Part shown: positions 3,661 to 27,084 of the stretch, one piece after another
Layout of the letters: each line of letters begins with the position of its first letter
Position numbering within the stretch: position 1 is the stretch's first letter
Assembly: GCA_964623105.1 (NCBI GenBank)
Contig: CAZUUP010000006.1
Span: 1-30,715, forward strand
DNA: 30,715 nucleotides
Source: an uncultured Akkermansia sp.
GTDB lineage: Bacteria > Verrucomicrobiota > Verrucomicrobiia > Limisphaerales > BJHT01
Direction: 5' to 3'
Notes under the pieces: generated by a model
What the model was told of the DNA's origin: nothing
Seen by the model: only the letters and a program-made list of their open reading frames with translations
Database searches by the model: none
Translations under genes and position numbers: made by a program

Positions 3661-4490
3661 TGGCGGCCACGGCGGGCCAGGATGACGCCGAGCACGCCCA
3701 GCAGCCAGAGTGGCGGCGTGGGAGCGCCCGGAGTTGTGTCTGCCGAGTTGAACGCGATTCCCTCCGGCGACGCGGCGACGCCGAAGTTGGCGGCCTCAAG
3801 CACCGCCGCGTCCCCGGCCCCGAGGAGGGCGAAGTCCTCGAATCCGCCGGAGAAATCAAAAAAGGTTTCGTTGCCCTGCGTGCGCGTGGCGGCCGTTTCG
3901 AGCAGTTGCACGTTGACCCTGGCCGACAACAGCGTCCCCTGAAACGCCACGTCCCGGATCTGGATCACATCATCGAGCTGCCCCAGGTTGAACCCGGAGG
4001 TGCTGCCCGTCAGCGCGCTGCTGCCACCCTTGCCGAAAAGCGTGTGAAACGTCCGGGCCTCGGTGCTTCCCGACTCGCGGATCAGGGCGCTCGTGCTCGT
4101 GAAGAAATCGCGGAAATTGTAGCTCCCGGCCGTCGTGGTGACCTGCAGTTCGAGCTGCTTGATCGCCACGCCGATCGAATCGGAGGTTTCATTTCCCGAG
4201 GCGTTTTCATTCAGGTCCACTCCCAGCGACAGCGTTCCGTTCGGCCCCACATACTGCTGGAATGCGCCGGGCGAGATGTCCTTCAACACGTCGATGACTC
4301 CCGATCCCTGGTAAATCTTGTCCGTCAGCATCACCGGCACCTGCGCCCGCACCATCGGCGGCAGGACGGAAACCCCGAGCCAGAGGAACAGCAGAACCGC
4401 CCAGCCCCCGGGCGCTTTCCCGGGCGACCCAGCGCGATTCCTGCGGGCACTTCCGCGGCGCGGGATTCTTTGCAATGCGACGTTTTTCAT
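3657..4490 (-). CDS. Secreted protein with a C-terminal PEP-CTERM-like sorting signal variant (APTP); predicted exosortase substrate (277 aa)
   Basis: Signal-peptide-like WAVLLFLWLGVSVLPPMVRA-QV, an S/T/G-rich beta-type mature domain, and C-terminus TTPGAPTP-PLWLLGVLGVILA-RRGRQ (motif, TM helix, basic tail). The exact start is uncertain. Confidence 0.82.
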   Translation of the reverse strand: MKNVALQRIPRRGSARRNRAGSPGKAPGGWAVLLFLWLGVSVLPPMVRAQVPVMLTDKIYQGSGVIDVLKDISPGAFQQYVGPNGTLSLGVDLNENASGNETSDSIGVAIKQLELQVTTTAGSYNFRDFFTSTSALIRESGSTEARTFHTLFGKGGSSALTGSTSGFNLGQLDDVIQIRDVAFQGTLLSARVNVQLLETAATRTQGNETFFDFSGGFEDFALLGAGDAAVLEAANFGVAASPEGIAFNSADTTPGAPTPPLWLLGVLGVILARRGRQ

Positions 4491-4652: not shown

Positions 4653-6113
4653 ATGATCAACATCCTTCACCCAGCCGGCTTCGAGCACCTTCTCGCCCCC
4701 CGCATCAAACAACTCGGCCTGGCATTTCGCACTTTTGCAGACGGCCACGTCACCGAATTGTCCCCGGCCACCAAGGACGTGGTCTATCTGGTGCCCTTGC
4801 AATCCATGGACGCGGACTCGTGGCCGCGGCTGCGCGTGCAGTTTGCGCGGGCCAACCGGCCGTACCTCGTCTGGCTCGACACCCCCACCACCCACGACGT
4901 GGCACGGAGCATGCGTGACGGGGCTTATGATGTGCTATCGACTCACGATTCCGACACCCGCTGGAGGCAGGCCATGATGGCCGTCGCCGAAAACCAGCGG
5001 CTCTGGCTGCAGCTCTACGGCGGGCGGCCGTTGAGCGCGGAGGATGTCCTCATCGGGCGCTCGGACGCGATCCAGCGCCTGCAACAGACCATCGACCGGC
5101 TCGGGCCGACCGACGTGTGCGTCCTCATCCACGGCGAGTCCGGGGTGGGCAAGGAGCGCGTTGCAGCCGCATTGCACAAGGCGGGCAAGGACGGCCCGTT
5201 CATTGCACTGAATTGCGCGGCGATTCCCAAGGATTTGCTCGAGGCCGAACTCTTCGGCGTCGAGAAGGGCGCGTTCACCGGCGCGCTCAAGTCGCGTCCC
5301 GGCCTGGTCGAGCAGGCCAACGGCGGCACGTTGTTTCTGGATGAAGTCGGTGAAATGGAAATCGGCGTGCAGCCAAAGCTGCTCCGTTTCCTCGAGACGC
5401 GCAAAGCCCGGCGCGTGGGCGGCGACTCGGAATACCGCGTCAAGGTCCGGGTCATCTCCGCCACCAACCGCAACCTCGACCTCGAGATTGCCGAGAACCG
5501 CTTCCGCCCCGACCTCTTTTACCGGCTGGCGGAAATCACGCTCCAGGTCCCGCCGCTGCGCACGCGTCCCGAGGACATCGCCGAACTGGCCATCGTTTTC
5601 CTGCGGCGCTCGAACGAGCGGTTTGGAAAAAATTTCGAGACGCTCGACCCGGAGCTGATCCGTCGTTTCGAGCAGTATTCCTGGCCGGGCAATGTCCGCG
5701 AGTTGAAGAGCGCGATCGACCGCCTGACGCTGCTCTTCGACGGCCCGATTCTGCGCGCGCCCTGGTGGGACATGCCGGAAAGCCGCCTGCCGCGGCCCGT
5801 CCAGGCGGTGGCGACGCCAGCCCCGCCCGCCGTGCCCGCTGCACCGGTCGCGCCGGTCGCGCCGGTTGCACCGCCGCCCCTGTTCGCGCCCGAGCCGCGC
5901 GAGACGCCGGTCGTTCCCGTCGCCGCCGCGGCCCCGGTCCTCCCGGCAGCCGCCGTCGCATTCGGGACGGCCATCCCAAACAGCAAACAGAAGTTTGCCC
6001 TCGCCAAAAAACTGCTCGCGGAGAGCGGCGACAATTTCAGCTGGGTTGCGGGCCAGCTCGGCATCAACAGCTCGACGCTCTGGCGCTGGCGCAAGGCGGG
6101 CAAGCTCGACTGA
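4653..6113 (+). CDS. Sigma54-dependent transcriptional activator (bEBP, NtrC family) with degenerate N-terminal receiver (486 aa)
   Basis: Walker A GESGVGKE, GAFTGA loop, Walker B LFLDE, FRPDLFYRL, WPGNVREL, a Pro/Ala linker and a C-terminal Fis-type HTH (VAGQLGINSSTLWRW). Confidence 0.95.
   Translation: MINILHPAGFEHLLAPRIKQLGLAFRTFADGHVTELSPATKDVVYLVPLQSMDADSWPRLRVQFARANRPYLVWLDTPTTHDVARSMRDGAYDVLSTHDSDTRWRQAMMAVAENQRLWLQLYGGRPLSAEDVLIGRSDAIQRLQQTIDRLGPTDVCVLIHGESGVGKERVAAALHKAGKDGPFIALNCAAIPKDLLEAELFGVEKGAFTGALKSRPGLVEQANGGTLFLDEVGEMEIGVQPKLLRFLETRKARRVGGDSEYRVKVRVISATNRNLDLEIAENRFRPDLFYRLAEITLQVPPLRTRPEDIAELAIVFLRRSNERFGKNFETLDPELIRRFEQYSWPGNVRELKSAIDRLTLLFDGPILRAPWWDMPESRLPRPVQAVATPAPPAVPAAPVAPVAPVAPPPLFAPEPRETPVVPVAAAAPVLPAAAVAFGTAIPNSKQKFALAKKLLAESGDNFSWVAGQLGINSSTLWRWRKAGKLD
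5841..5873 (+). repeat. 9-bp tandem repeat (about 3.7 copies) encoding APV-APV-APV-AP in the bEBP linker
   Basis: gcaccggtc-gcgccggtc-gcgccggtt-gcaccg. Confidence 0.7.
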
Positions 6114-9306: not shown

Positions 9307-9381
9307 TCCGTTTCCAATCAACTCAAGCTGTGGCATAAACCTTTGCCGTCACGGTCAACCAACCTCAACCCGGATACCCCT

Positions 9382-9938
9382 ATGTATGGAATGGTGAACA
9401 AAGCAATCGAAGACATGGTTTGCGCCAATCATGGCGAAGCCGTGTGGGAACAGATCAAGGCCGAAGCCGGCGTGGACGTGGATGTCTTCATGAGCAACGA
9501 AGGCTACCCGGACGAGATCACCTACCAGCTCGTCGGCGCCGCCAGCAAAATTCTCAAGCTCCCCGCCGACGCCATCCTCGAGTCCTTCGGCGAACACTGG
9601 GTGCTGCACACCGCGCAGGAAGGCTACGGCGGATTGATGCAGGCCGCCGGCAAATCGCTGCCCGAGTTTCTCGCCAACCTGCCCAACTTCCACTCGCGCG
9701 TGGCGATGATCTTTCCCAAGCTGCAGCCGCCGCGTTTTCAATGCACCGACGTGACCGCCTCGTCGCTCCGGCTCCATTACTTCACCCACCGGCCCGCCCT
9801 GACGCCCTTCGTCGTCGGGTTGATGAAAGGCCTGGGCCGGATGTTTAAGACCCCCGTCTCGGTGCGCCTCGCCGTGCCAAAAGGAGCCGGTGCCGACCAC
9901 GACATCTTCGACGTGACGTGGACGAATGCTCCGGCCGC

Positions 9939-9942
<4 letters not shown>
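9382..9942 (+). CDS. hnoX: H-NOX (heme NO/O2-binding) protein (186 aa)
   Basis: MYGMVNKAI N-terminus, FGEHW, proximal His104 (NFH), PPRF proline and Y-x-T-x-R (Y133/T135/R137). Closely resembles the Nostoc and sGC-beta1 type H-NOX. Confidence 0.95.
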
Positions 9943-12922
<2,980 letters not shown>

Positions 12923-12926
<4 letters not shown>

Positions 12927-13309
12927 ACCGACCCAAAATCGTCCTTATCGAGGATCATCCCCTGAATCGGGAGCTCGTCATCGATTGCCTCGAATCGGTC
13001 GGCTACGATGTCCTCGCCGCCAACACCGCCGCGACCGGCATCCGGATGGTCGAACAGGAACAGCCCGCGATCGTGTTGATGGACATCTCCCTGCCGGACA
13101 TGGACGGCCTGACCGCCACCCGTCGGCTCAAGGAAAACCCCGCCACGCGCCACATCCCCGTCATCGCGGTCACCGCTCACGCCATGCGCAGCGACGCCGA
13201 ACGCATCCGCGACGCCGGCTGCGACGCCCAGCTCACCAAGCCCATCGACATCCGCGCGCTCCGCGAACTCGTGGCGCGACTCCTCCACCCCGGTCCCCCG
13301 CCACAATGA
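12923..13309 (+). CDS. Single-domain response regulator (DivK/CheY-like, 128 aa)
   Basis: LIEDH, LMDISLPDMDG, VTAHA and TKP. ATGA overlap. Confidence 0.93.
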
Positions 13310-15282
13310 AATCGCCTCCGGATTCTCCTCCCACCTCCGCCGGACGTATCTTGGTCGTCGATGACGAGCCCTTCAATCGCGACATCCTCCGCGACGCCCT
13401 CGCCGATCACGGCTACGAAGTGGTCGAGGCCGAGAATGGCGCCGAGGCCATCAAGCAGGTCGCAGCCCACGCCCCCGACGTCATCCTGCTGGACATCATG
13501 ATGCCCGTGATGGACGGCCTCAGCGCCTGTCGCCAGCTCAAGGCCGCTCCCGCCACCGCCGCCATTCCGATCGTCGTCATAACCGCATTGCACGAACGCG
13601 AACCCCGGCTCGAGGCCATCGCCGCGGGAGCGGACGATTACCTCACCAAGCCCGTGGATCTCCCGGAGGTGCTCCTGCGCGTCCGCAACGCCGTCCGCTC
13701 CCGGCGCCTCTATCTCGAACTCCAGGCCAGCTACCAGCGCCTCCAGCAACTCGAGGAACTCCGCGACAACCTCACGCACATGATCGTGCACGACATGCGC
13801 GCGCCGCTCTCCGCCATGATCGGTTTCCTCAACCTCCTCCGCACCGGCGTCGGCCCCCGGCTTTCGCCTCCGGAAAAATCCGCTCTCGACACCGTCACGT
13901 CTTCTGCCAGCCGGCTCGCCGACATGGTCACCACCATGCTCGACGTCAGCCGCCTCGAGTCGGGCGCCATGCCCCTCCACCCCGAATCGTGCGACCTGCG
14001 CGCGGTCGCCGCCGCCGGCCTCGACCCGCTGGGACCGCTGGTGGCCGACCGCCGGATCCTCGTGCTCGCCTCCGGACCTGTCACCGCCCGCTGCGATCGC
14101 GAATTGATCCGCCGCGTCATCTCCAATCTCCTCGGCAACGCCCTCAAGTTCGCACCCCCGAAAACCGACATCCGCATCATCCTCGACCATCGCGCCGACC
14201 GCGTCCGCGTCGAGGTGATCGATGCCGGCCCGGGCATCGCGCCCGAAAATCAGGAAAAGATTTTCTCGAAATTCGGCCAGGTCACCGGCCCGAAGCAGGG
14301 AATGGGCAGCGGGCTTGGCCTCACGTTTTGCAAACTCGCCGTCGAAGCGCACGGCGGCCGCATCGGGGTCAGCAGCGAACCCGGCCGGGGCGCAACCTTC
14401 TGGTTCGAACTCGACTCCGCGCCATCCACTCCAGCCCCGCCTCCCGCGAATGCCCCGCCCTCCCCTCTCGCGCCCACAGCCCCGCCCGCAGCCGACCGGC
14501 CCGCACCCGCTCCTCCGGGCCGCACACTGCGCATCCTCGCCGCCGAAGACGACGATGCGAACCGCCGGCTGACCAAAGTCCTCCTCGAAAGCCTCGGACA
14601 CCACGTCACCGCCGTCGCCGACGGGGCCCAAGCCGTCGCCGCCTGGGCACCGGGAAAATTCGACGCCCTGGTGACCGACTGCGAAATGCCCGCGATGGAC
14701 GGCTTCGAAACGACCCGGCAAATCCGCCAGCGCGAAGCCGCCCTCGGCATCCCCGCCCCGCAGCGCCTCCGCATCCTGGCCGCCACGGCCAATCCCGCTC
14801 CGGACATGCCGCAGCGTTGCCGCGCCGCGGGCATGGACGATTTTCTCGCCAAGCCGCTTACCGCCCAGGGACTGCACCACGCGCTCTCCCAGGCCCCCGG
14901 CCTGCCACCCACCACGCCACCGCGCCCCCCGTGCGACTTCGACCCGCAGCGTCCCGCCCAGCTCTGCGCGGAACTCGGCGCGGAATCGGGCCACATGATC
15001 ATCGGTGATTTCCTCCGCGACCTTCCCGCCGCCCTCGCGGAAATCCGTGCCGCCTTCGTCGCCGGACGCGGCCAGGATCTCGCGCGCCACGCCCATTCAC
15101 TTCAAGGCATCAGCCGTTCCCTCGGCCTCGATGGATTCTCAGAATGTCTGCTGGGTCTCGAACTGGCCGCCGGCCAGAGCGACCTCGCCGCAGCCGTTCC
15201 GCCCCACCTCGAAGCGCTGGCCCTCTCCGCCGAAAAATCCACCGCCGCCCTGTCCGACTGGCTCACGTCCAATCGCCCGTGA
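13306..15282 (+). CDS. Hybrid kinase REC-HisKA-HATPase-REC-HPt (658 aa)
   Basis: VVDDE/LLDIMMP, H-box HDMRAPL, NLLGNALKF, DAGPGI, GSGLGL, a second REC (AEDD/TDCEMP) and HPt AHSLQGISRSLG. Confidence 0.92.
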   Translation: MKSPPDSPPTSAGRILVVDDEPFNRDILRDALADHGYEVVEAENGAEAIKQVAAHAPDVILLDIMMPVMDGLSACRQLKAAPATAAIPIVVITALHEREPRLEAIAAGADDYLTKPVDLPEVLLRVRNAVRSRRLYLELQASYQRLQQLEELRDNLTHMIVHDMRAPLSAMIGFLNLLRTGVGPRLSPPEKSALDTVTSSASRLADMVTTMLDVSRLESGAMPLHPESCDLRAVAAAGLDPLGPLVADRRILVLASGPVTARCDRELIRRVISNLLGNALKFAPPKTDIRIILDHRADRVRVEVIDAGPGIAPENQEKIFSKFGQVTGPKQGMGSGLGLTFCKLAVEAHGGRIGVSSEPGRGATFWFELDSAPSTPAPPPANAPPSPLAPTAPPAADRPAPAPPGRTLRILAAEDDDANRRLTKVLLESLGHHVTAVADGAQAVAAWAPGKFDALVTDCEMPAMDGFETTRQIRQREAALGIPAPQRLRILAATANPAPDMPQRCRAAGMDDFLAKPLTAQGLHHALSQAPGLPPTTPPRPPCDFDPQRPAQLCAELGAESGHMIIGDFLRDLPAALAEIRAAFVAGRGQDLARHAHSLQGISRSLGLDGFSECLLGLELAAGQSDLAAAVPPHLEALALSAEKSTAALSDWLTSNRP

Positions 15283-15303
15283 AATCCGCCGCCCGTCGCT
15301 GAC

Positions 15304-15326
15304 ACGCCATTCGCGCGATGGCGTTT
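15304..15326 (+). terminator. Possible weak intrinsic terminator after the two-component operon
   Basis: ACGCCAT-N7-ATGGCGT hairpin, followed by only a short T run. Confidence 0.25.
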
Positions 15327-15417
15327 GCCCGCCGGACCCCACGCTGCGTTAACCCGGCGCGAAGACGTCAGCGGGCGACGCAACGGATTCTTTCGGGCAA
15401 CCCTCCCGCGCCGCCGC

Positions 15418-15433
15418 TGGCACGCCGATTGCA
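15418..15433 (+). promoter_or_regulatory. Sigma54 promoter of the GT4/priming-transferase operon
   Basis: TGGCACG-CCGA-TTGCA is a near-perfect consensus with GG-N10-GC spacing, 36 nt before the 15470 ATG. Confidence 0.88.
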
Positions 15434-15469
15434 TACTCCATCACAGCCGCCACGGAGCGGCCCAATGTT

Positions 15470-16669
15470 ATGGAGATACTTTACGTTCACGAACGATTCG
15501 GGGCGCTGGCCGGCGCGGAGGCCAACGCGCACATCACCGCGACAGAACTGGCCGCCCGCGGCCACACGCTCGGCATCCTGCACGGCCCGTCCACCGGGAA
15601 AAACGAGGCCGCCTGGAACGCCACATTCTCCCGGCGGTTTGCACTGCAACGCGATTGCAATGCAACGATTGCACAGGAGGCCGTGCAACGATTCCAACCC
15701 GACGTCATCTACGTCCACAAGATGGCGGACCTCGAGGTCATCGACGCGCTGGTCGCCACCGGGGTGCCCCTGGTGCGGATGGTGCATGACCACGACATCT
15801 ACTGCATGCGCAGCTACAAGTATGACTACTTCAGCCGCGAAATCTGCACCCGGCCGGCCGGCCCGCACTGCGTCGTCTCGTGTCTTGCCTGCGTGGCGCG
15901 GAACCACGACGGCCCGCTGCCGCTCAAGTGGGTGAGCTACTCCGGCAAGCAGCGCGAGATCGCGCTCAACCGCCGGTTCGACCGCATGGTGGTCGTCACG
16001 CCCTACATGCGCGACGAGCTTCTCCGCAACGGCTTTGATCCCCGGCGCATCGAAATCCAGGCCCCGGTCCCGCGCCCGGGCGACCCCGGTTTGCGCAGCA
16101 CTTTCAGCGACCGGAATCTCATCCTCTACGCCGGCCAGATCATCCGCGGCAAAGGCGTCGATGTGCTCTTGGAATCCCTCGCGCTGCTCGATGCCCCCTT
16201 CGAGTGCATCATCCTCGGGGACGGCAATCACCGCCGGCACTGCGAAGCGCTCAGCCGCCGGCTCGGCCTTGCGGACCGCGTCTCTTTCAAAGGCTTCGTG
16301 CCGCAGGACGAACTCAAGCGCTACTACCGCGAAGCGTCCGTGGTCGCGGTCAGTTCCGTCTGGCCCGAACCCATCGCCACCATCGGGCTTGAAGTCATGC
16401 GCTACGCCCTGCCCGTGGTGGCCTTCGACGCCGGCGGCATCTCCGACTGGCTCGCCGACGGCCGCAACGGCTTCCTCGTCCCCTGGATGGATCGCCCCGC
16501 ATACGCGGCCCGCCTGAAGCAACTCCTGACCGACAAACGCCTCGCCCGCGAGATGGGCCAGGAAGGACTCCGCATCGCGACCGGGCGCTACGACTTCGAC
16601 CGCTACATCAGCAGCCTCGAATCGATTTTTGACCGCGTCATCCGGGAAAAAGCCGCCGCGCAAAACTGA
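15470..16669 (+). CDS. Glycosyltransferase family 4 (399 aa)
   Basis: GALAGAE, HDHDIYC, YAGQIIRGKGVD and E-x7-E in WPEPIATIGLEVM. GGAG RBS. Confidence 0.92.
   Translation: MEILYVHERFGALAGAEANAHITATELAARGHTLGILHGPSTGKNEAAWNATFSRRFALQRDCNATIAQEAVQRFQPDVIYVHKMADLEVIDALVATGVPLVRMVHDHDIYCMRSYKYDYFSREICTRPAGPHCVVSCLACVARNHDGPLPLKWVSYSGKQREIALNRRFDRMVVVTPYMRDELLRNGFDPRRIEIQAPVPRPGDPGLRSTFSDRNLILYAGQIIRGKGVDVLLESLALLDAPFECIILGDGNHRRHCEALSRRLGLADRVSFKGFVPQDELKRYYREASVVAVSSVWPEPIATIGLEVMRYALPVVAFDAGGISDWLADGRNGFLVPWMDRPAYAARLKQLLTDKRLAREMGQEGLRIATGRYDFDRYISSLESIFDRVIREKAAAQN
15639..15673. promoter_or_regulatory. Intragenic tandem TTGCA-N-TGCAA palindromes (candidate downstream enhancer)
   Basis: TTGCA-C-TGCAA (15639) and TTGCA-A-TGCAA (15655) are 16 bp apart, with an extra TTGCA at 15669. 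Confidence 0.5.
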
Positions 16670-16723
16670 TCGCGCGCCGCCAGCCGACGAACCGAATTTC
16701 CGCAACCTCCGCTCCCCGCATCC

Positions 16724-17476
16724 ATGAACGAGGAACAATTGACCGCCCACTCCGTCCACCGCCTGCTGGCCGCGCAATCGCCGTGGGGCCGTGCCCGCCT
16801 CCGGACCCGCGTGAACTGGCAGCGCCGCCGCTGGCTGCTCGTCGCGCAGGCCACCCTGCGGCTCAAGCGCGCGCTCGACGTCGCCGGCAGCCTGCTCGCA
16901 CTCGCGCTGTTCGCCCCCGTGTTTCTGCTCGTCGCGGCGTGCGTGAAGCTGGACGGCGGCCCCGTTTTGTTCCGGCAAAAACGCGCGGGCTTGAACGGAC
17001 GCGAGTTCCACATGCTCAAGTTCCGCACCATGTGCGTGGACGCCGAAGATCGCCTCCAAGCGCTCTTGAGCCGCAACGAGAAACCGTCCGGCGTCACCTT
17101 CAAACTCAAGGACGATCCCCGCGTCACGCCGGTCGGACGCTGGCTGCGCAAGACGTCGCTGGACGAGCTGCCGCAGTTCTGGAACGTGCTCCGCGGCGAC
17201 ATGTCCCTCGTCGGACCGCGCCCGCCCGTGAGCCGCGAAGTCGCGCTTTATTCGCTGGCCGACCGCCGCCGTCTGCGCGTGAAACCCGGCATCACCTGTC
17301 TGTGGCAGGTCGGCGAGCGCCACGGCGGCCTGCTCGAAATCGGCGACCGCAACGCCATCGATTTCCCCGAGCAGGTCGATCTCGACGTGCGTTACATCGA
17401 GAGCCAGTCGCTTGGAAAAGACCTGTGGCTGCTGGCCAAAACCGTCCCCGCGATCCTCTTCGGCAAGGGCGCCTGA
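16724..17476 (+). CDS. Priming sugar transferase (small phosphoglycosyl transferase, WcaJ/PglC-like; 250 aa)
   Basis: KRALDV plus a membrane helix, GPVLFRQKR, KFRTM, LDELPQFWNVLRGDMSLVGPRP and KPGITCLWQV. Confidence 0.95.
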   Translation: MNEEQLTAHSVHRLLAAQSPWGRARLRTRVNWQRRRWLLVAQATLRLKRALDVAGSLLALALFAPVFLLVAACVKLDGGPVLFRQKRAGLNGREFHMLKFRTMCVDAEDRLQALLSRNEKPSGVTFKLKDDPRVTPVGRWLRKTSLDELPQFWNVLRGDMSLVGPRPPVSREVALYSLADRRRLRVKPGITCLWQVGERHGGLLEIGDRNAIDFPEQVDLDVRYIESQSLGKDLWLLAKTVPAILFGKGA

Positions 17477-17480
17477 ACTC

Positions 17481-18305
17481 ATGAACATCATCCTCCACTG
17501 TCCCTCGCACGCGGCCCCGGTCCCCGCGCTGACCCGCCGCTTTCCGCTCGCCCTCACTCCGTTGTTGGGCGCCACGGTCATCGAGCACGCCCTGGCTGCT
17601 CTCGCCGCGGAGGGCGTCCGCCGCATCCGCCTTACGGCGACGCAATCGGTCGCGGAAATCCGCGCGGTCGTCGGCCGCGGCGAAGCCTGGGGCGTGGATA
17701 TCGAAGTCACCACGCCCACCGCATCGGGGAACGGCCCGCCGCCCGACCGCGTCGTCGCGCTCGAACACCTCCCGCAGCTCCCGCACCTGCCGCTCTGGCG
17801 CAGCTATCGCGATTGGTACGGCGTGCATCAGGAGTTGCTCCCGCTCGCCGCGCGACAACAACTCGCGATGCGCGAGATCGCGCCCGGTGTGTTTGCGTCC
17901 CGCCGTTCGCAGCTCAGCGCGGATGCCCGCCTCGAAGGCCCGTGCTGGATCGGTGCCGGTGTCTTCATCGGTCGCCGCGCCCGGGTCGGCCCCGGCACGG
18001 TCATCGAGGACGGCTGCTACGTGGACGAAGGCGCGGAAATCACCGGCAGCATCATCGGCCCGCGCACGTTCGTCGGCGCTTATGTCGAAGTCCGCGATTC
18101 CTTCGCCTGGGGGGACGAACTGCTCCAGCTTGATACCGGCTCGCTGACGCGCGTCCCCGATCCCTTCCTGCTCGCGGAGTGTCAGGTGCGTCGCCGCTCC
18201 ATCGCCCATTTCCTCGCGCGGCTCGCGTCGCGGACCCGAGCCCCGTGGTCGGGTCCCGAATATCGTTCGCACGCCGCCAGCGAGGCGCCCGCATGTCTCA
18301 ACTAA
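17481..18305 (+). CDS. Degenerate NDP-sugar pyrophosphorylase-like protein with a left-handed beta-helix (274 aa)
   Basis: LTRRFPLALTPLLGATVIEHAL and GEAWGVDIE resemble the nucleotidyltransferase N-terminus. Hexapeptide-like repeats follow (GPCWIGAGVFIGRRARVGPGTVIEDGCYVDEGAEI). Confidence 0.65.
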   Translation: MNIILHCPSHAAPVPALTRRFPLALTPLLGATVIEHALAALAAEGVRRIRLTATQSVAEIRAVVGRGEAWGVDIEVTTPTASGNGPPPDRVVALEHLPQLPHLPLWRSYRDWYGVHQELLPLAARQQLAMREIAPGVFASRRSQLSADARLEGPCWIGAGVFIGRRARVGPGTVIEDGCYVDEGAEITGSIIGPRTFVGAYVEVRDSFAWGDELLQLDTGSLTRVPDPFLLAECQVRRRSIAHFLARLASRTRAPWSGPEYRSHAASEAPACLN

Positions 18306-18351
18306 CCTAACCAACCGACCTCTCCATCCACTCAACCATCCCCTCATCACC

Positions 18352-19230
18352 ATGCCTGCACTCACCCACCAGATCGCCCGCAGCCTCCTGCACCGCTATC
18401 CATTTCCCCGCGGTCAGGGCCGGCTCATCGACTCGACCGGCCTCGGCTCGCTGATGTTTCAGGAACAAATCCTCGAAGTGCCCACCAGCGACGGCTTCTC
18501 GATGCACGTGATGCCCAACGACCTGATCGGACGCCATCTCTACCTGACGGGTCAGTTCGACCGGACGATTCCCGAGGTGCTGCTGCACTTCGCGCGCGAT
18601 GGCGACCGCATCCTCGACATCGGCGCCAACGTCGGCTACGTGAGCTGCGTCCTCCTCGCCCGGCTGCCCGCCTGCCGCGTCGTCTCCGTCGAACCGCTGC
18701 CGCACTGCTTCCAGCTTCTCCAAAAGAATCTCGCCCGCGTGGGCCCCGGTCGCGCGCGCGCCATGAACTTCGCGGTCTCGGATTCCGATTCCCGCGGGAC
18801 CATGATCTGCGTCGCGGGCAACTCCGGGGGCAGCCACCTCCGCGACCTGCCCCCACCCGGCGCGGCCAAGAACTCCGTCGAAGTGAACCTCATCTCCGGC
18901 CCCAAGCTCATGCTCGAATCCCGGCTCGACGGACTGGACCTCGTCAAACTCGACGTCGAAGGCCACGAGGAAACCGTGCTCCGTTCGCTCATCCCCGTGA
19001 TTCAACGCTTCCGACCGCGCGCGATCCTGTTCGAATGCCACGACGCCTGGCGATTGCAGGCCGCGGATTTCCCGCTGCGGCAGGTCTTCGCCAAGACCCG
19101 CTACCGCGTCGCCGGGATTCACAAACGCCTGACCTCGTGGCGGCTCGTTCCCCTCGAGGAACTGGCGGCCCGCGGCCTCAAGGCCCAGGACTATGTCGCA
19201 ACTCCCGAGGAATTCGTGGACGCAGGCTGA
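18352..19230 (+). CDS. FkbM-family SAM-dependent methyltransferase (292 aa)
   Basis: ILDIGANVGY, VEPLP, AVSD and LVKLDVEGHE. Confidence 0.92.
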   Translation: MPALTHQIARSLLHRYPFPRGQGRLIDSTGLGSLMFQEQILEVPTSDGFSMHVMPNDLIGRHLYLTGQFDRTIPEVLLHFARDGDRILDIGANVGYVSCVLLARLPACRVVSVEPLPHCFQLLQKNLARVGPGRARAMNFAVSDSDSRGTMICVAGNSGGSHLRDLPPPGAAKNSVEVNLISGPKLMLESRLDGLDLVKLDVEGHEETVLRSLIPVIQRFRPRAILFECHDAWRLQAADFPLRQVFAKTRYRVAGIHKRLTSWRLVPLEELAARGLKAQDYVATPEEFVDAG

Positions 19231-19378
19231 CCGGCCCCGCCCCGTCCGCACGCGCAATGGAAAACCACAAACGCACCGCATGAACCTTCCGCCACCACGG
19301 CCAACCCGCTCCGCATCGCACGCTTGGCGGCCCCGGAATTTTGCCCCATTGTTTCAGCTCGAACAAACCTGACGACTG

Positions 19379-19681
19379 ATGACCACTTATTTCACGGCCG
19401 ACAAGCTGACCATCGGCGGCCTTGTCGAGCTTAACTCCGCCAACAGCACCGCGGTGCGCGACGACACCCGCGCCGCGCTCCGCGAGAACATCCGCACCCT
19501 CGATGTCGATCTGTCCCAGACCCGCTTCGTGGACAGCAGCGGCCTCGGCGCGCTGATCGCACTCCACAAAACCCTCTGCTCCCGCGGCGGCACCGTGCGC
19601 ATCCTCAACCCCGCACCCCCCGTCCTGCAAATCCTCGAACTCACCCGGCTTCACCGCGTGTTTGAAATCGTCCGCACCTGA
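19379..19681 (+). CDS. STAS-domain protein (anti-anti-sigma / SypA-like, 100 aa)
   Basis: VDLSQTRFVDSSGLGALI carries the phosphorylatable DSSG motif; also ILELTRLHRVF. Confidence 0.92.
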   Translation: MTTYFTADKLTIGGLVELNSANSTAVRDDTRAALRENIRTLDVDLSQTRFVDSSGLGALIALHKTLCSRGGTVRILNPAPPVLQILELTRLHRVFEIVRT

Positions 19682-19687
19682 CCGGTC

Positions 19688-21475
19688 ATGGACGCCGACG
19701 CCTCCCGCCCGCTGCTCGCGCGCCGCCTCGAGTTCCCCTGCGAACTCGCCGCCGCCGCGCAGGCCCGCGCGCAGGCGTGCGCCGCCCTCGCCGCCGACGG
19801 CGTGGCCCCGGATGAAGTGAGCCGCCTGGAACTCGCCCTCGCCGAGGGCGCCAACAACGCCGTCTTCTACGTCCGCGAAACGGCCCGCCCGCTTCCTGTC
19901 CGCATCGAGACGCTCGTTTCCCCCGCCTGGGTTGAAATCCGCATCACCGATCACACGCCGGGCTTCGATTTCCCCGCGCACGCCACGCTTCCCCCCGAGG
20001 ATGCCGAATCCGGCCGCGGCTTGTTCCTCATTCAAAACCTCGTCGATGAAGCACGCTACCTGCGCGGCGACGCCGAGAACTGCCTGATCCTGCGGCTGCG
20101 GCGCGCCGCCTCCGCCAGTCCGCCGCCCGCCGTTCCGCCGGGCGATCCCGCGGAAAAACTGCGCGAGACCGAACGCACCCTCGAGTTGATGACCGAGGAG
20201 CTTTCCTCGTGCTACGAGAGCCTCTCGGCCGTCTTCCGGTTCAGCAGCGAACTGCAGGCCGACGACGCCTCCGCGAGCTTCGTGCAGCGCTGGCTCGATC
20301 AATTGCTGCGCATCACCGATGCCGACTGGTTCATCCTCCGCCTCGCCAGCCCCGACGGCTCGGAACTGCGCACCGCCGCCACCTCGCATGCCGGCGGCCT
20401 TCCCGAGCCGGTCGCCCTCGCGGCCGCGAGTTCGCCCCGCGCCTCCGCGGAAGCCGCCGCCGCCGCCACGCGGAAAGATTTCTGGTTCGACGCCTCGACG
20501 CCGCTGGCCCACGACGACCCGCTGCACCGCCCTGCGGGAACCGGCTGCGGCCTCGCGCATCCGATGTTTGTGAACGACACGCTCGTCGGCGTCCTCACCG
20601 TCGGCCGCCTCCCGGCCCGCCCCGCATTTCAGACCGGCCAGTCCAGCGTCATCCAAACCGTCGCCGACTTTCTCGCGCTCCAAATCCGCAACGCGCAACT
20701 GCACGAGGAACAGCTCGCCGCGCGGCTCAACCTGCGCGACCTCGAGATCGCCGCCAACATCCAGCGGATGCTCCTCCCCGAGCAGCTCCCGTCCGCGCCC
20801 CGCGCGTCCCTCGCCGGCTTTTACCGCAGCGCGCGGGAAATCGGCGGCGACTACTACGACGCGCTCCCCACCCCCGATGGCGGCCTGCTGCTGGTCGTCG
20901 CGGACGTGATGGGCAAGGGCCTGCCGGCCGCGCTGTTCGCCTTCATGTTCCGCAGCCTGGTCCGCGCGCGCCGCGACCTCGCGCCGCAACCGTCCGAATT
21001 CCTCGCGTGGCTCAACCAAAATCTTTTCCACGAACTCGACCGCGCCGAGATGTTCATCACCGCGCAACTGGCCTTCTGGGATGGCCCCCGCGGCGAACTC
21101 CGCGTCGCCGGCGCCGGGCATCCGCCGCTGCTCGCCGCGGGCGCCGACGGGCACGTGCGCGAGATCGCCTCCGGCGGCCCGCCGCTCGGCATCCATGCCG
21201 CGGCGGAGTTCCCCGGCGAGTCCGTCGCATGTCCGGACGGCCACGCCCTGATGTTCACCGACGGCCTGATCGAGGCGCGCAACGCCCGTTCCGAACTGCT
21301 GGGGCTGGACGCCGTCAAGGCCGTGCTGGCCGCGGCCGCCCGCAACCGCGACTCCGGCGAATCCGCGAAGCAACGCCTCATTGATCTGCTTCGGGGCTTC
21401 GAGTTGGAAACCGCACCCGCCGACGACACCGCGTTCCTCGTCCTTTCCCGCACGGAGGCGGGCGATCATGCCTAA
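19688..21475 (+). CDS. RsbW-like Ser kinase - GAF - SpoIIE/PP2C phosphatase fusion (595 aa)
   Basis: N-terminal ELALAEGANNAV, PGFD and SGRGLFLI; a coiled coil; a GAF-like region (PMFVNDTLVGVL); PP2C motifs GGDYYD, ADVMGKG, FTDGL and DDT. Confidence 0.9.
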   Translation: MDADASRPLLARRLEFPCELAAAAQARAQACAALAADGVAPDEVSRLELALAEGANNAVFYVRETARPLPVRIETLVSPAWVEIRITDHTPGFDFPAHATLPPEDAESGRGLFLIQNLVDEARYLRGDAENCLILRLRRAASASPPPAVPPGDPAEKLRETERTLELMTEELSSCYESLSAVFRFSSELQADDASASFVQRWLDQLLRITDADWFILRLASPDGSELRTAATSHAGGLPEPVALAAASSPRASAEAAAAATRKDFWFDASTPLAHDDPLHRPAGTGCGLAHPMFVNDTLVGVLTVGRLPARPAFQTGQSSVIQTVADFLALQIRNAQLHEEQLAARLNLRDLEIAANIQRMLLPEQLPSAPRASLAGFYRSAREIGGDYYDALPTPDGGLLLVVADVMGKGLPAALFAFMFRSLVRARRDLAPQPSEFLAWLNQNLFHELDRAEMFITAQLAFWDGPRGELRVAGAGHPPLLAAGADGHVREIASGGPPLGIHAAAEFPGESVACPDGHALMFTDGLIEARNARSELLGLDAVKAVLAAAARNRDSGESAKQRLIDLLRGFELETAPADDTAFLVLSRTEAGDHA

Positions 21476-21839
21476 AAAAATCCTCATCGTGGACGACGAA
21501 CCGCACATGCTGCGCGTCACCGAACTGAGCCTGCGCAAGGGCGGCTTCGAAATCCTCACCGCTCGCGACGGGCGCGCCGCGCTCGACATCGCCACCCGGG
21601 AACTTCCCGCCCTGATCGTCATGGACGTGACCATGCCCGAGATGGATGGCATCACCGCCCTCAAGCAGCTCAAGGCGGCGCCCGCCACCGCGGCCATTCC
21701 CGTCATCATGCTCACGTCGCGCGGCCAGACCGTCGCCCGCGAGGAAGCCCAGGGTTCCGGCGCGGCGTTGTACCTCACGAAGCCGTTCTCCCCCTCGCAA
21801 CTCCTCGCCGAAGCCGTCCGCATCCTCGGTCCGGCCTGA
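21468..21839 (+). CDS. Single-domain response regulator (123 aa)
   Basis: ILIVDDE, VMDVTMPEMDG, MLTS and TKPF. GGAGG RBS at 21454-21458. Confidence 0.93.
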   Translation: MPKKILIVDDEPHMLRVTELSLRKGGFEILTARDGRAALDIATRELPALIVMDVTMPEMDGITALKQLKAAPATAAIPVIMLTSRGQTVAREEAQGSGAALYLTKPFSPSQLLAEAVRILGPA

Positions 21840-22034
21840 GCCTGCGCCTCCCGAGGGGCCGCATCTCCCCGTCCGTTTCGACTTCCCCGGACACCCGCAC
21901 CCTCGCCCCGGGGAGACCACGCCCCGCAGGGTTTAATCCAGATCGGGAGGGCGGATGCCGCATTTTCAATCGTGCGCGGCGGTCAAGCCTCCGCTCCTCG
22001 GGCGTCGCGTTTCCAAAATGCAATGCACCGGCTT

Positions 22035-22049
22035 TGGCACGCCGCCAGC
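22035..22049 (+). promoter_or_regulatory. Possible sigma54 promoter of the right-hand glycan operon
   Basis: TGGCACGCCGCCAGC has GG-N10-GC spacing and shares its first 10 bp with the 15418 promoter, but the -12 box is degenerate. Confidence 0.45.
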
Positions 22050-22205
22050 GTAACCACGGGAGGCGAATGAAACTGCAATGGCAAATCACAGGGCTCGAGT
22101 CGGCGGGAAACCCCCTGGTTATCTCGGGTTGCAATCGGTCACACGTCGCCTGCCGCCCAGTTGGGGATGCCCGGCAGGGATGCCGGCCATTGCTCGCTTA
22201 TTGCG

Positions 22206-22218
22206 GTTGCATTGCAAC
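22206..22218. promoter_or_regulatory. Perfect palindrome GTTGCA-T-TGCAAC (candidate bEBP site)
   Basis: 13-bp palindrome with the same core as the 4638 and 15639/15655 sites. A further ATGCA-A-TGCAC lies at 22018. Confidence 0.5.
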
Positions 22219-22236
22219 GCTTATCCACCCCCTGCA

Positions 22237-23427
22237 ATGAAACCTACCCTTGGCCTTTTCATCATGATCGACGCGATGGGCTGGGAAATTCTGCGGCACG
22301 ATTCCTTCGGACACGATTTCGCGCCGACCCGCAAGCGCCTCGGGAGCGTGTTCGGCTACAGCTCGGCCTGCGTGCCGTCCATCGTCTCGGGCCGCTGGCC
22401 GGCGGAGCACCACAACTGGTGCTATTTCGTCCACGATCCGCAGAACTCCCCGTTCCGTTCGCTGCGCCCGTTGCGCTGGCTGCCCAGGGCGTTGACCAGC
22501 CGGCGTTTCTTCCGGCGCGCCCTCACCCGCTGGGTCCGGTCGCAGCTCGGTTTCCAAGGCTACTTCGACCTCTACAACATCCCGTTCCAGCACATCCACG
22601 CCTACGATTTCACCGAGAAAAAAAATCCGCTCCAGCCCGGCGGCATGAACCGGGGCGAAAACATTTTCGACTTCCTCGCCGCCGAAAACATCCCGTGGTT
22701 CGTCAGCGATCCCGGTCGGACCGAGGAGCAGAACCGCGACGCGCTCGCCGGCCACCTGCGCCGGGGCGACATCGATTTCGCCTTTCAATACTGGCCCGGA
22801 CTCGACGGCCTGTTGCATCGCGTCGGCAATGCGTCGCCCGAAGTGCCGGCCCGCCTCCGCCTCTACGGGCAGTGGATCCACGAATTGCTCGCCGCCGCCC
22901 GCCAGCGCTACGCGGACATTCATCTCTACGTCTTCAGCGACCACGGCATGGCCAACTGCGACGTTCACCTCGACCTGATGGCCCGGATCGAGGCGCTCCC
23001 GCTGCGGCAGGGGATCGACTACGCGGTGGTTTACGACTCGACCATGGCCCGCTTCTGGTTCTTCCACGCGAACGCACGCCGCCTGATCACCGCCGAACTC
23101 CAGGCGATTCCGCAGGGCCGCATCCTGCCCGACGCGGAATTGGAATCCCTGCACACGCGATTCGCCGACCACCGCTTTGGCGAACTGATCTTCCTGGTGG
23201 ACGAAGGCGTGCTGATCGTCCCCAGCCACATGGGCGAACGCCCGATCCGCGCGATGCACGGCTATCATCCGTCGGCTCCGCACAGCTTTGCCGCGCTGCT
23301 CACCAACCAGCCGGAAATTCCCGCTCACGTGACTGCCATCCCGCATCTCCACGGCGTGATGAAGCACACCGCGCAACTGGCCCGCGCGCAAAACCGGGCC
23401 GCCCTGCAACCCCTCCAACTCGCATGA
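22237..23427 (+). CDS. Alkaline phosphatase superfamily (nucleotide pyrophosphatase/phosphodiesterase-like) protein, no signal peptide (396 aa)
   Basis: Metal-ligand motifs MIDAMG, LDGLLH, FSDHGM and AMHGY; nucleophile region GYSSACVPSIVSG. Confidence 0.85.
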   Translation: MKPTLGLFIMIDAMGWEILRHDSFGHDFAPTRKRLGSVFGYSSACVPSIVSGRWPAEHHNWCYFVHDPQNSPFRSLRPLRWLPRALTSRRFFRRALTRWVRSQLGFQGYFDLYNIPFQHIHAYDFTEKKNPLQPGGMNRGENIFDFLAAENIPWFVSDPGRTEEQNRDALAGHLRRGDIDFAFQYWPGLDGLLHRVGNASPEVPARLRLYGQWIHELLAAARQRYADIHLYVFSDHGMANCDVHLDLMARIEALPLRQGIDYAVVYDSTMARFWFFHANARRLITAELQAIPQGRILPDAELESLHTRFADHRFGELIFLVDEGVLIVPSHMGERPIRAMHGYHPSAPHSFAALLTNQPEIPAHVTAIPHLHGVMKHTAQLARAQNRAALQPLQLA

Positions 23428-25738: not shown

Positions 25739-27084
25739 AGACCACCACCCCCACCCACGCGCCCAGCCGGATGGCCACCGCCATCGGCTGGCAAAACCCA
25801 CCCCCGTCATCCGACCGCACGCAATCGCCACTGCGCGTCGCACACATCCTCCGCAAATACGATCCCCTCGAATGGGGCGGGACGGAAACCGCCGTCCTGC
25901 GCCTCCTCGAAGGCCTCGCCGCGCACGGCGTGCAATCCTCCGTTCACTGCCCCGCGCTGGCCGCGCGCACCGGCCGCGATCCGCTCGCCGAAGCGGGCGC
26001 GCAAGTCCGCCGCTACCACGCCTTCCTCCCCGTGGCCGGCATTTCCGGGCAGCGGCGGCGGCAACTGGTCCGGTGGGGTGGCAACCTCATGTCGTTCGAC
26101 CTCTTCACCCGGTTGCTGCGCGAGCCGCTCGACGTCATCCACACCCACGCCCTGAACCGCCTCGGGGGCATCGGGCTTGCCGCCGCCCGTTGGCGCAACC
26201 TGCCGCTGGTCGTCACCATTCACGGCGGCTGGTTCGATCTGCCCGCCGAGGCCATGGCCGCGCTCACCGCTCCGCTCTTGGGCGGATTCGAGTGGGGCCG
26301 CGTGCTCGGCCTGTTGCTGCAAAGCCGGCGCCTGCTGGAAAAGGCCGACGCCGTCCTCACCTGCAATCCGCGCGAAGCGGACCTCATCCGCCAGCGGCAC
26401 CCGCATCAGCGCGTGCTCGTGCAACCGCATTCCGTCCCGGCCGCCCGCTACGCCGTCGATCATCGTGCCGAAGCCCGGCAAGCGTTTCCGCAAATCGCCG
26501 GCCGGGATGTCGTCCTCTGCGTCGCACGGCTCGATCCGGTGAAAAACCAGCGCTGGCTGGTCGATCAACTGCCGGTCGTGGTGAAGCGCCATCCGCGCGC
26601 GCTGCTCGTCTTCGCCGGACCCGAGACATTTCCCGGCTACGAAGCCACCCTCCGCCACGCGCTGGGCCGTCTCGGCCTCGAGGACCGCGTCCTCTTCACC
26701 GGCAGCCTCGAACCCGGTGGCGGCCCGCTGATCGGCCTGCTCCAGCACGCCCGCGCCACCGTGCTGTCGTCCACCGCGGAGACCTTCGGGCTGGCGATTA
26801 TCGAAGCTTGGGCCGCCGGCTCGCCGGTCATTTGCTCACGCACCTCGGGCGCGGAATCACTCATCCGCCACGGCGAAACCGGCTGGCTTTTCCCGCTCGA
26901 CAATCCCGCTGAATTCCACGCCGCCCTCGACCGCGCGCTGCAACCCGGTCCGGCCCGCGAGCGGATGATCGATGCCGCCTCGACGCTCGTGCGCACCACT
27001 TACGACACCGTCGCGGCCGCCCGCCGCGTCGGCGATCTCTACGCTGAACTCCACCAACAAAAACCTGGAAGAAACCAACCATGA
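25735..27084 (+). CDS. Glycosyltransferase family 4 (449 aa)
   Basis: WGGTETAV, DVIHTH, VARLDPVKNQ and E-x7-E in AETFGLAIIEAW. Confidence 0.92.
   Translation: MKTTTPTHAPSRMATAIGWQNPPPSSDRTQSPLRVAHILRKYDPLEWGGTETAVLRLLEGLAAHGVQSSVHCPALAARTGRDPLAEAGAQVRRYHAFLPVAGISGQRRRQLVRWGGNLMSFDLFTRLLREPLDVIHTHALNRLGGIGLAAARWRNLPLVVTIHGGWFDLPAEAMAALTAPLLGGFEWGRVLGLLLQSRRLLEKADAVLTCNPREADLIRQRHPHQRVLVQPHSVPAARYAVDHRAEARQAFPQIAGRDVVLCVARLDPVKNQRWLVDQLPVVVKRHPRALLVFAGPETFPGYEATLRHALGRLGLEDRVLFTGSLEPGGGPLIGLLQHARATVLSSTAETFGLAIIEAWAAGSPVICSRTSGAESLIRHGETGWLFPLDNPAEFHAALDRALQPGPARERMIDAASTLVRTTYDTVAAARRVGDLYAELHQQKPGRNQP

Follow-up and report, generated by a model that had tools for sequence, protein, structure and literature searches.

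A predicted STAS partner-switch cassette conserved within polysaccharide gene clusters of Verrucomicrobiota

Here we describe a cassette of three genes that is conserved in Verrucomicrobiota inside polysaccharide gene clusters. The genes encode a STAS protein, a fusion of a serine kinase, a GAF domain, and a PP2C phosphatase for which we coin the name KGP, and a stand-alone receiver (REC). The textbook role of a partner switch is to regulate a sigma factor. We consider it probable, at about 0.7, that this cassette is instead a partner switch controlling polysaccharide synthesis post-translationally, a reading in which we infer the phosphotransfers, the sign of the control, and its target.

Results

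Organization of the STAS-KGP-REC cassette

The window, by which we mean the whole 30,715-nt stretch of DNA analyzed, is a contig from the genome of an uncultured Akkermansia sp. The original prediction had placed a STAS gene, a kinase-GAF-PP2C fusion, and a downstream REC gene here, and Pfam searches found all three, closely spaced on the plus strand. Both the domain E-values and the synteny of the cassette are well past the level of chance. The first gene (19379..19681) encodes a single-domain STAS protein of 100 residues that is SypA/RsbV-like (Pfam STAS, 1.4e-14; STAS_2, 1.2e-12). The second gene (19688..21475) encodes the 595-residue KGP, in which, again as proposed, a serine kinase-like domain lies N-terminal to a PP2C domain in one chain with a GAF domain between them. 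By Pfam, these are an RsbW-like HATPase_c_2 domain (residues 16-136, 19733..20095; 4e-20), a GAF_3 domain (residues 199-335, 20282..20692; 7e-9), and a SpoIIE-type PP2C domain (residues 396-588, 20873..21451; 1.2e-39). The third gene (21468..21839) encodes a canonical REC of 123 residues (Response_reg, 2.8e-27). The start of REC is the ATG at 21468 rather than the TTG at 21381, and this ATG overlaps the stop of KGP by 8 nt (ATGCCTAA), suggestive of translational coupling of REC to KGP.

The STAS protein carries the motif D52-S53-S54-G55 within FVDSSGLG, which confirms the DSSG reported earlier, where either Ser53 or Ser54 had been named. Of 86 STAS orthologues, 85 retain the first Ser of DSxG and the second position varies (C, S, E, N, D, H, or A), and for this reason Ser53 is favored as the predicted phospho-acceptor.

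Kinase, GAF, and phosphatase domains of KGP

The layout of KGP, at ~590 residues, recurs in more than 1000 homologues. When the kinase domain served as the query of a representative search, the best 150 matches were all KGP-type proteins or fragments. A phylum-wide genome search with full-length KGP returned mainly PP2C-only proteins and was superseded by order-level searches. The set of HATPase_c_2, GAF, and SpoIIE domains also occurs in clusters from Pseudomonadota and Actinomycetota in a protein atlas that gives neither an alignment nor the order of domains. The AF2 model of KGP (pLDDT 84.8) revealed as fold matches Rv1364c, RssB, SiaA, and SpoIIAB.

Alignment of the kinase domain to RsbW (6m36) and SpoIIAB (1l0o) identified an N-box (E53/N57), a G1 variant (D88-H-T-P-G92), and a G2-like motif (E107-S-G-R-G111), with D88 as the adenine-contacting Asp of G1. 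The original prediction had correctly noted DHTPG in place of DxGxG at the G1 box, but its suggestion of a weakened kinase was not borne out. The variant, TDHTxGF, is family-wide, with Thr throughout the family where DxGxG has its first Gly. The N-box E53/N57, D88, G92, and the G2-like E-x-G-R-G are unchanged columns of the family alignment at identities down to 43%, which gives no indication that the kinase is decaying. The active kinase RsbW of Bacillus subtilis, whose G1 reads DEGDS, also departs from DxGxG with one Gly missing.

The same G1 box could be taken to mean that KGP is a GAF-regulated phosphatase only, with a catalytically lost GHKL domain that docks STAS while another kinase phosphorylates it. 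The replacement of the first Gly by Thr in the entire family would fit such a protein, and a second RsbW-like kinase is indeed encoded, together with a PP2C, on contig C30 of the same genome. However, invariance of the remaining nucleotide-binding motifs is unexpected for a dead ATP site, and RsbW is active although likewise short of one G1 Gly, and we find a phosphatase-only KGP very improbable.

The PP2C residues D388, D391, D406, G409, D525, G526, D579, and D580 are invariant in the KGP family and include all of the metal Asps. The closest solved relative of this domain is Rv1364c (PDB 3ke6; 6.8e-14, 30-33% identity). KGP is predicted to be a bifunctional STAS kinase/phosphatase, its kinase activity being putative since G1 lacks the first Gly. 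In the AF2 model, a long helix flanks the GAF domain on either side (residues 154-189 and 316-362), and W214, D264, W266, D277, P278, H291, and P292 are invariant in this region of the family. The GAF domain is predicted to act as a sensory input to the PP2C via the helical linker, in keeping with the general mechanism described for GAF/REC/PAS-linker-PPM proteins (PMC12143880).

A polysaccharide locus with a sigma-54 promoter

The window also encodes a Wzy-like protein, a flippase, glycosyltransferases, a Bac_transf protein, and a sigma-54 activator. The Bac_transf protein, a small priming sugar-phosphate transferase (16724..17476, plus strand; 250 aa; 1.3e-65), may be a target of unphosphorylated STAS, and its gene is upstream of the cassette in ~47 of 82 loci. 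A complex prediction for STAS with Bac_transf, run without controls, scored 0.00 and is neutral as to binding.

The cassette forms the end of an operon that starts behind a sigma-54 promoter with the consensus TGGCACGCCGATTGCA (15418..15433, plus strand), located 52 nt 5' of the first gene and the sole zero-mismatch match within the window. Among the 82 loci, a perfect consensus was found in L011 only, at the equivalent position. The relaxed form GGCAC-N5-YTGC was present only in the four closest relatives (L007, L009, L010, and L011), where it is at -52 to -58 of the first gene of the same operon. The genome encodes rpoN. A scan of 15200-22300 revealed neither a sigma-70 promoter-like site nor a plus strand terminator exceeding background, and Rfam yielded no match in the whole window.

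The sigma-54 enhancer-binding protein (4653..6113, plus strand; Sigma54_activat, 2e-62) is the transcriptional arm of the locus. It has no Pfam REC match, and comparison by hhalign of its N-terminal alignment with a REC alignment gave a probability of 0.8%, a negative that is uninformative since a later fold search revealed a receiver fold. Residues 1-137 adopt this fold in the AF2 model, with the receivers of FixJ, DctD, and NtrC1 as top Foldseek matches. The N-terminal sequence lacks the acidic pocket, the phospho-Asp, and the Lys, and the modeled domain thus appears to be a pseudo-receiver. An activator without phospho-acceptor residues needs another input, and this could be envisioned as STAS or phosphorylated REC binding the pseudo-receiver and gating assembly of the ATPase, such that the cassette would set transcription rather than enzyme activity. 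The sigma-54 promoter driving the operon would be in keeping with such an output, as would the membership of the activator in the minimal cassette of L001, L016, L018, and L020. Nonetheless, an activator is found in only 8 of 37 well-flanked loci, and L059 retains KGP-REC even though the activator next to it carries a normal REC. Furthermore, SypA of Vibrio fischeri acts post-transcriptionally (PMC10120452), and we regard a transcriptional output of the cassette as unlikely.

Conservation of the cassette and the question of a sigma factor

In the 78 evaluable Verrucomicrobiota loci, the STAS gene is immediately 5' of KGP in 70 and the REC gene immediately 3' of KGP in 72. The usual neighbors of the cassette encode a priming sugar transferase, an acetyltransferase, a flippase, and glycosyltransferases, and glycan genes were found in 30 of the 37 cassette loci having at least 5 kb of flank on each side. 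Five loci have KGP-REC without a STAS gene within 10 kb.

The absence of a sigma factor gene nearby, also part of the original prediction, held, as no Sigma70_r2 match was found on the 30.7-kb contig versus 16 elsewhere in the genome. The homology of the KGP kinase domain to RsbW and SpoIIAB would be consistent with an anti-sigma switch of the OsaC/RsbW type, in which this domain sequesters a sigma-70-family factor encoded elsewhere and STAS frees it. The sigma-70-family genes of the genome, 16 in number and all on short contigs other than this one, would be compatible with this, and Streptomyces coelicolor OsaC, a protein with GAF, PAS, and PP2C domains, modulates SigB according to work cited in PMC12143880. 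In addition to being absent from the contig, however, a sigma-70 gene is within 10 kb of the cassette in only 4 of the 82 loci, at inconsistent positions. The conserved companions of KGP are instead glycan enzymes and STAS-fused glycosyltransferases, and an anti-sigma switch appears quite unlikely.

REC and a candidate phosphodonor

The acceptor-site residues of REC (D9, D10, D53, and K105) are conserved among 74 orthologues. Provision of REC in trans, as originally suggested, fits both the translational coupling and the frequent adjacency of REC to KGP, but REC is not obligatory, since none was found in six KGP loci having enough flank. A hybrid histidine kinase with a C-terminal HPt is encoded in the window (12985..15282, plus strand; two Response_reg domains, HisKA, HATPase_c, and Hpt) and could serve as the phosphodonor of the stand-alone REC. 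A related hybrid kinase is within 10 kb of the cassette in 20 of the 37 well-flanked loci.

A glycosyltransferase fused to STAS domains

The STAS protein of the window is free, and enzyme-fused STAS domains are encoded in the same genome on contig C140, where a WecG glycosyltransferase is fused to two STAS domains with DSTG in each. An order-level search of 121 genomes detected KGP in 25 and the WecG-STAS fusion in 23. Both were found in 17 genomes, KGP without the fusion in 8, the fusion without KGP in 6, and neither in 90, giving an odds ratio of 32 that overstates the association because related genomes are not independent. The fusion gene adjoins KGP-REC in L001, L016, L018, L020, L045, L056, L059, and L065. 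L045, L059, and L065 each have an operon of the form KGP-REC-WecG-STAS-STAS, and free STAS is absent within 10 kb.

In relatives, the WecG-STAS-STAS gene is ~9.5-12 kb 3' of KGP in the same locus, and it is this synteny, not the assembly, that suggests that the window and contig C140 are physically joined. When the contig ends of the window, C820, and C140 were compared, an overlap was found between C820 and C140 only, of 36 nt, and no counterpart of C820 or of the last 600 nt of the window was found in related loci. The RsbW-like kinase and PP2C of contig C30 could serve the fused STAS domains instead of KGP. A literature search for WecG/TagA-STAS fusions found nothing relevant in the library searched.

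Discussion

We propose that Ser53 of the neighboring STAS protein, and probably also the DSTG serines of WecG-STAS-STAS, would be substrates of the GHKL kinase domain at the N-terminus of KGP, and that the C-terminal PP2C would take this phosphate off again. The balance between kinase and phosphatase would be set by the GAF domain via the helical linkers together with the co-translated REC, for which the hybrid kinases with an HPt in this locus would be the phosphodonors. As the analogy with SypA and All4160 suggests, STAS would be active when unphosphorylated and would then permit early lipid-linked glycan assembly at Bac_transf priming, at the WecG step, or at both. Transcription of the operon would be driven separately by sigma-54 and the locus activator. 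A more specific form of this proposal, which we advance tentatively and at somewhat less than even odds, is that KGP is a dedicated bifunctional STAS kinase/phosphatase directly gating the first lipid-linked glycan steps, with STAS either free and docked on Bac_transf or fused to WecG.

A direct STAS phospho-switch on a polysaccharide enzyme was first shown in 2026 and was called cyanobacteria-specific (PMC13555669), and what SypA acts on in the squid symbiont is still unknown (PMC10120452). If our proposal is correct, enzyme-level partner switching would have its first example outside the cyanobacteria in this cassette, which would represent the same logic in a third phylum. The KGP-REC-WecG-STAS-STAS operons would then point to glycosyltransferases as the long-unknown target class of SypA-type STAS proteins. 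The cassette is conserved in hundreds of uncultured Verrucomicrobiota, organisms that abound in soil and freshwater and have a rich polysaccharide metabolism, and its fusions and operon variants nominate concrete, testable targets. The architecture is compact, with a GAF sensor, a receiver, a kinase, and a phosphatase that would all converge on a single serine.

The RsbW-like kinase domain of S. coelicolor OsaC is at the N-terminus. Like KGP, OsaC is a multidomain protein with PP2C and GAF domains, and it also has PAS (PMC12143880). OsaC modulates SigB, whereas KGP has no accompanying sigma gene and no PAS by Pfam, and the two are likened by shared domains only. Pseudomonas HsbR and Shewanella CrsR have the domain order REC-PP2C-kinase and are not known to have a GAF domain, and the outputs of HsbR/HsbA and CrsR/CrsA are RpoS, FlgM, or a diguanylate cyclase rather than a glycan locus. 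These systems also combine a PP2C and an RsbW-like kinase in one protein, with a STAS substrate and control by a receiver and HPt relay (PMC6482189). Rv1364c of Mycobacterium tuberculosis, like KGP, has a PP2C and an RsbW-like kinase in the same chain, but the order is reversed (PAS-PP2C-kinase-STAS), the STAS is fused, and there is a link to SigF.

In Anabaena PCC 7120, the kinase Alr3423 and the REC-PP2C protein HenR act on the STAS-Bac_transf protein All4160. An enzyme of polysaccharide synthesis is thus gated directly by reversible phosphorylation of a STAS Ser, and the PP2C is coupled to a receiver (PMC13555669). The cassette parallels All4160 in having Bac_transf as a conserved neighbor and WecG-STAS-STAS as a conserved companion. 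The Anabaena kinase and phosphatase are separate proteins, whereas in KGP they are fused. Conversely, the STAS of All4160 is fused to Bac_transf, whereas that of the window is free and the fused enzyme of the lineage is of the WecG/TagA family with two C-terminal STAS domains. STAS-Bac_transf fusions are described as rare outside the cyanobacteria (PMC13555669).

The original prediction likened the cassette to the SypA/SypE switch of V. fischeri. Apart from the weakened kinase, this likeness stands in the kinase and PP2C at the two ends of the chain, the DSSG(L/I)GA STAS, and the sigma-54 polysaccharide locus without sigma-70. The central domain of SypE is a REC, whereas KGP has a GAF in this place and REC is encoded on its own by a co-translated gene. 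The window activator has a pseudo-receiver, unlike SypG of V. fischeri, and the host phylum is Verrucomicrobiota. No sigma factor partner is known for SypE/SypA (PMC10120452). SypE, compared here by its description, is like KGP a single chain that begins with a Ser kinase and ends with a PP2C (PMC10120452). SypA, compared by motif alone (FLDSSGIGAIV, from published primers; PMC10120452), is like the window STAS a single-domain protein with (F/V)(L/V)DSSG(I/L)GA, in which the first Ser is the acceptor, as predicted for Ser53. In both the syp locus and the window, STAS and kinase-PP2C genes are found within a sigma-54-dependent polysaccharide locus in which a hybrid HPt kinase is also present.

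Domain content and gene arrangement of the cassette

The window is one entire 30.7-kb contig (C6) of a 6.26-Mb genome comprising 958 contigs with a G+C content of approximately 68%. Domain matches recovered every component of the original prediction: a single-domain STAS protein (19379-19681, 100 aa; STAS, 1.4e-14), a fusion of an RsbW-like kinase, GAF, and PP2C phosphatase here termed KGP (19688-21475, 595 aa), and a stand-alone receiver, REC (21468-21839; Response_reg, 3e-27). Within KGP, HATPase_c_2 spans residues 16-136 (4e-20), GAF residues 199-335 (7e-9), and SpoIIE/PP2C residues 396-588 (1e-39). The three ORFs, all on the plus strand, show the third-position G+C bias typical of true genes. 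STAS and KGP are separated by 6 nt, and the receiver starts at an ATG (21468) that lies across the stop codon of KGP (ATGCCTAA), so STAS, KGP, and REC are translationally coupled. The predicted lack of a nearby sigma factor was also borne out, with no sigma-70-family gene on C6 versus 16 elsewhere in the same genome.

The surrounding plus-strand genes encode a sigma-54 activator (4653-6113), a Wzy-like protein, a GT4 glycosyltransferase, an H-NOX protein (9307-9942; HNOB, 1e-50), an HNOBA-PAS-GAF-PAS hybrid kinase, a REC-HisKA-HATPase-HPt kinase (12985-15282), a GT4 heading the operon, Bac_transf (16724-17476), a hexapeptide acyltransferase, and an FkbM methyltransferase, followed by the cassette. 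Downstream are a type I phosphodiesterase-family protein, a flippase, DUF2334, GT2, and GT4. Within 309-4490, minus-strand genes for an exosortase (EpsH)-like protein (1157-2635) and a GT2 (309-2024) diverge from the activator, indicating that the glycan locus adjoins an exosortase system. The ORFs at 3657-4490 (minus) and 25872-26912 (plus) matched no Pfam family.

The H-NOX and two hybrid kinase genes (9307-15282) are inserted amid glycosyltransferase genes, and H-NOX homologues also lie approximately 7 kb upstream of KGP in four relatives (L009, L033, L067, L074). In Vibrio fischeri, syp is controlled by NO via HnoX-HahK, which the arrangement in the window recalls.

Conservation of the cassette in Verrucomicrobiota

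More than 1000 KGP homologues of equal length and architecture were found, nearly all labelled Verrucomicrobiota. Synteny was examined at 82 non-redundant loci from species-representative genomes. STAS directly precedes KGP in 70 of the 78 evaluable loci and REC directly follows it in 72 of 78; 16 loci carry two STAS genes. About 47 of the 82 have Bac_transf and the hexapeptide acyltransferase upstream, and about 40 have a phosphodiesterase-family gene downstream. Where at least 5 kb was available on each side (37 loci), glycan genes were present in 30, and a related hybrid kinase lay within 10 kb of KGP in 20; one locus (L005) has a free HPt gene. That the cassette is a real, conserved system is well supported.

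A sigma factor encoded elsewhere might instead be held in trans by the KGP kinase domain. Only 4 of the 82 loci have a sigma-70-family gene within 10 kb, at inconsistent positions, and with no support from synteny we regard this alternative as improbable.

REC is missing at six KGP loci (L037, L040, L050, L051, L062, L072), so receiver input is dispensable in some lineages; in L040, L050, L051, and L062 a phosphodiesterase-family gene begins approximately 7-100 nt after KGP. A family HMM scan recovered no STAS domain, free or fused, within 10 kb at five KGP-REC loci (L025, L044, L049, L064, L075), which may represent a paralogous subgroup whose output differs. At L064, an ECF-like sigma gene is found 1.2 kb upstream.

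Catalytic residues and predicted folds

In an alignment of KGP with 27 homologues (identity down to 43%), the kinase residues E53 and N57 of the N-box, the G1 aspartate D88, G92, and E107-x-G109-R110-G111 are invariant. The G1 box had been read correctly as DHTPG. Most members have TDHTxGF, with T90 conserved in at least 90% of the aligned proteins; DHTPG is thus a family trait and not a private lesion. Bacillus subtilis RsbW is an active kinase. KGP DHTPG aligns opposite the DEGDS of that protein (6m36), each being without one glycine of DxGxG, and SpoIIAB can be superposed on the kinase domain of KGP. Loss of catalysis in this domain is unlikely, given its invariant ATP-site residues.

The PP2C metal ligands D388, D391, D406, D525, D579, and D580 are likewise invariant in this alignment, and the closest solved relatives are Rv1364c, RssB, and SiaA. 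In the AF2 model of KGP (pLDDT 84.8), long helices at residues 154-189 and 316-362 flank GAF, the latter agreeing with the sensor-linker-PPM arrangement put forward as a general mechanism (PMC12143880). The receiver retains D9, D10, D53, and K105. Of 86 orthologous STAS genes, 85 retain the first Ser of the DSxG motif, and the second position is variable, making S53 the predicted acceptor.

A WecG-STAS-STAS companion of KGP

A recurrent companion of KGP is a 496-aa WecG/TagA-family glycosyltransferase fused to two STAS domains. Its gene immediately follows REC in eight loci (L001, L016, L018, L020, L045, L056, L059, L065) and lies approximately 9.5 kb downstream in L008, L015, and L033. L045, L059, and L065 have the operon KGP-REC-WecG-STAS-STAS, with free STAS absent within 10 kb.

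In the genome of the window, the gene for the fusion lies on contig C140 (3234-4775, locus L087), and both STAS domains have DSTG. Genes matching the C6 end run directly into those of the C140 start, and then WecG, in L008 and L077, and two genomes of the order (G320, G396) have KGP and the fusion on one contig, 10-12 kb apart. Contig C820 overlaps the C140 start by 36 nt, and a search of contig ends found no overlap with the C6 end. C140 probably continues the locus of the window, as judged from synteny in relatives.

KGP was present in 25 of 121 genomes sampled from the order and the fusion in 23, with both in 17 and neither in 90 (odds ratio 32, Fisher p 3e-10; kinship is ignored, which overstates the association). 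Neither was found in the two other genomes sampled from the genus of the window (G349 and G420, 96% and 76% complete), so the regulated locus as a whole looks accessory.

A sigma-54 arm

A single site in the window, TGGCACGCCGATTGCA (15418-15433), matches the sigma-54 consensus perfectly; it is 52 nt upstream of the GT4 that heads the gene run ending with REC. Each of the four closest relatives has the same -24/-12 element at -52 to -58, and the genome has rpoN. AF2 and Foldseek assign a (beta-alpha)5 receiver fold to the N-terminal 137 residues of the activator (4653-5063), with the FixJ, DctD, and NtrC1 receivers among the top matches. The acidic (DD) pocket, acceptor Asp, and Lys are replaced (MINILHP, VYLVP, VLSTHD), features conserved in 9 orthologues, and this domain is a predicted pseudo-receiver. 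Control of the activator by STAS or REC is an attractive alternative for the window, but only a minority of loci have the activator together with the cassette, and in L059 the activator next to KGP-REC carries a normal REC. The locus thus has a sigma-54 transcriptional arm and, separate from it, a predicted phospho-switch, as is also true of the syp locus.

Proposed mechanism and comparison with known systems

In the simplest model, KGP would determine whether STAS Ser53 is phosphorylated, and probably do the same for the STAS domains fused to WecG. GAF and the phosphorylated receiver would tilt the balance between KGP kinase and phosphatase, with the HPt-bearing hybrid kinases of the locus feeding the receiver. 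Unphosphorylated STAS would permit early steps of lipid-linked glycan assembly. The direction of this effect is taken over from two known switches: in SypA, the S56A form is active and the S56D form is not (PMC10120452), and All4160 S74A bypasses the phosphatase (PMC13555669).

All4160 is itself a STAS-Bac_transf fusion (PMC13555669), and Bac_transf is the most constant non-regulatory neighbour of the cassette, so by a gene-fusion argument STAS may contact the Bac_transf priming enzyme. We infer that the cassette directly controls glycosyltransferases, which would be its most interesting aspect.

The same genome has a second partner-switch-like pair (C30:7430-9850; L088 1431-3849), in which a dCache-HAMP-PP2C membrane phosphatase precedes a stand-alone RsbW-like kinase, with no adjoining STAS by Pfam. 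This pair, the six loci lacking REC, and the five KGP-REC loci lacking STAS are kept in view as exceptions to the main model.

Database labels of KGP proteins are generic only ("SpoIIE family protein phosphatase" or "RsbU/anti-sigma regulatory factor"), and our literature search found no paper on the KGP family or WecG-STAS fusions. The cassette would work like V. fischeri SypE/SypA and the Anabaena HenR/Alr3423/All4160 module. Its STAS and PP2C are those of a partner switch, and its locus is of the SypE/SypA kind. It differs from SypE, whose receiver is central, and from the classical partner switch, which has a sigma partner.
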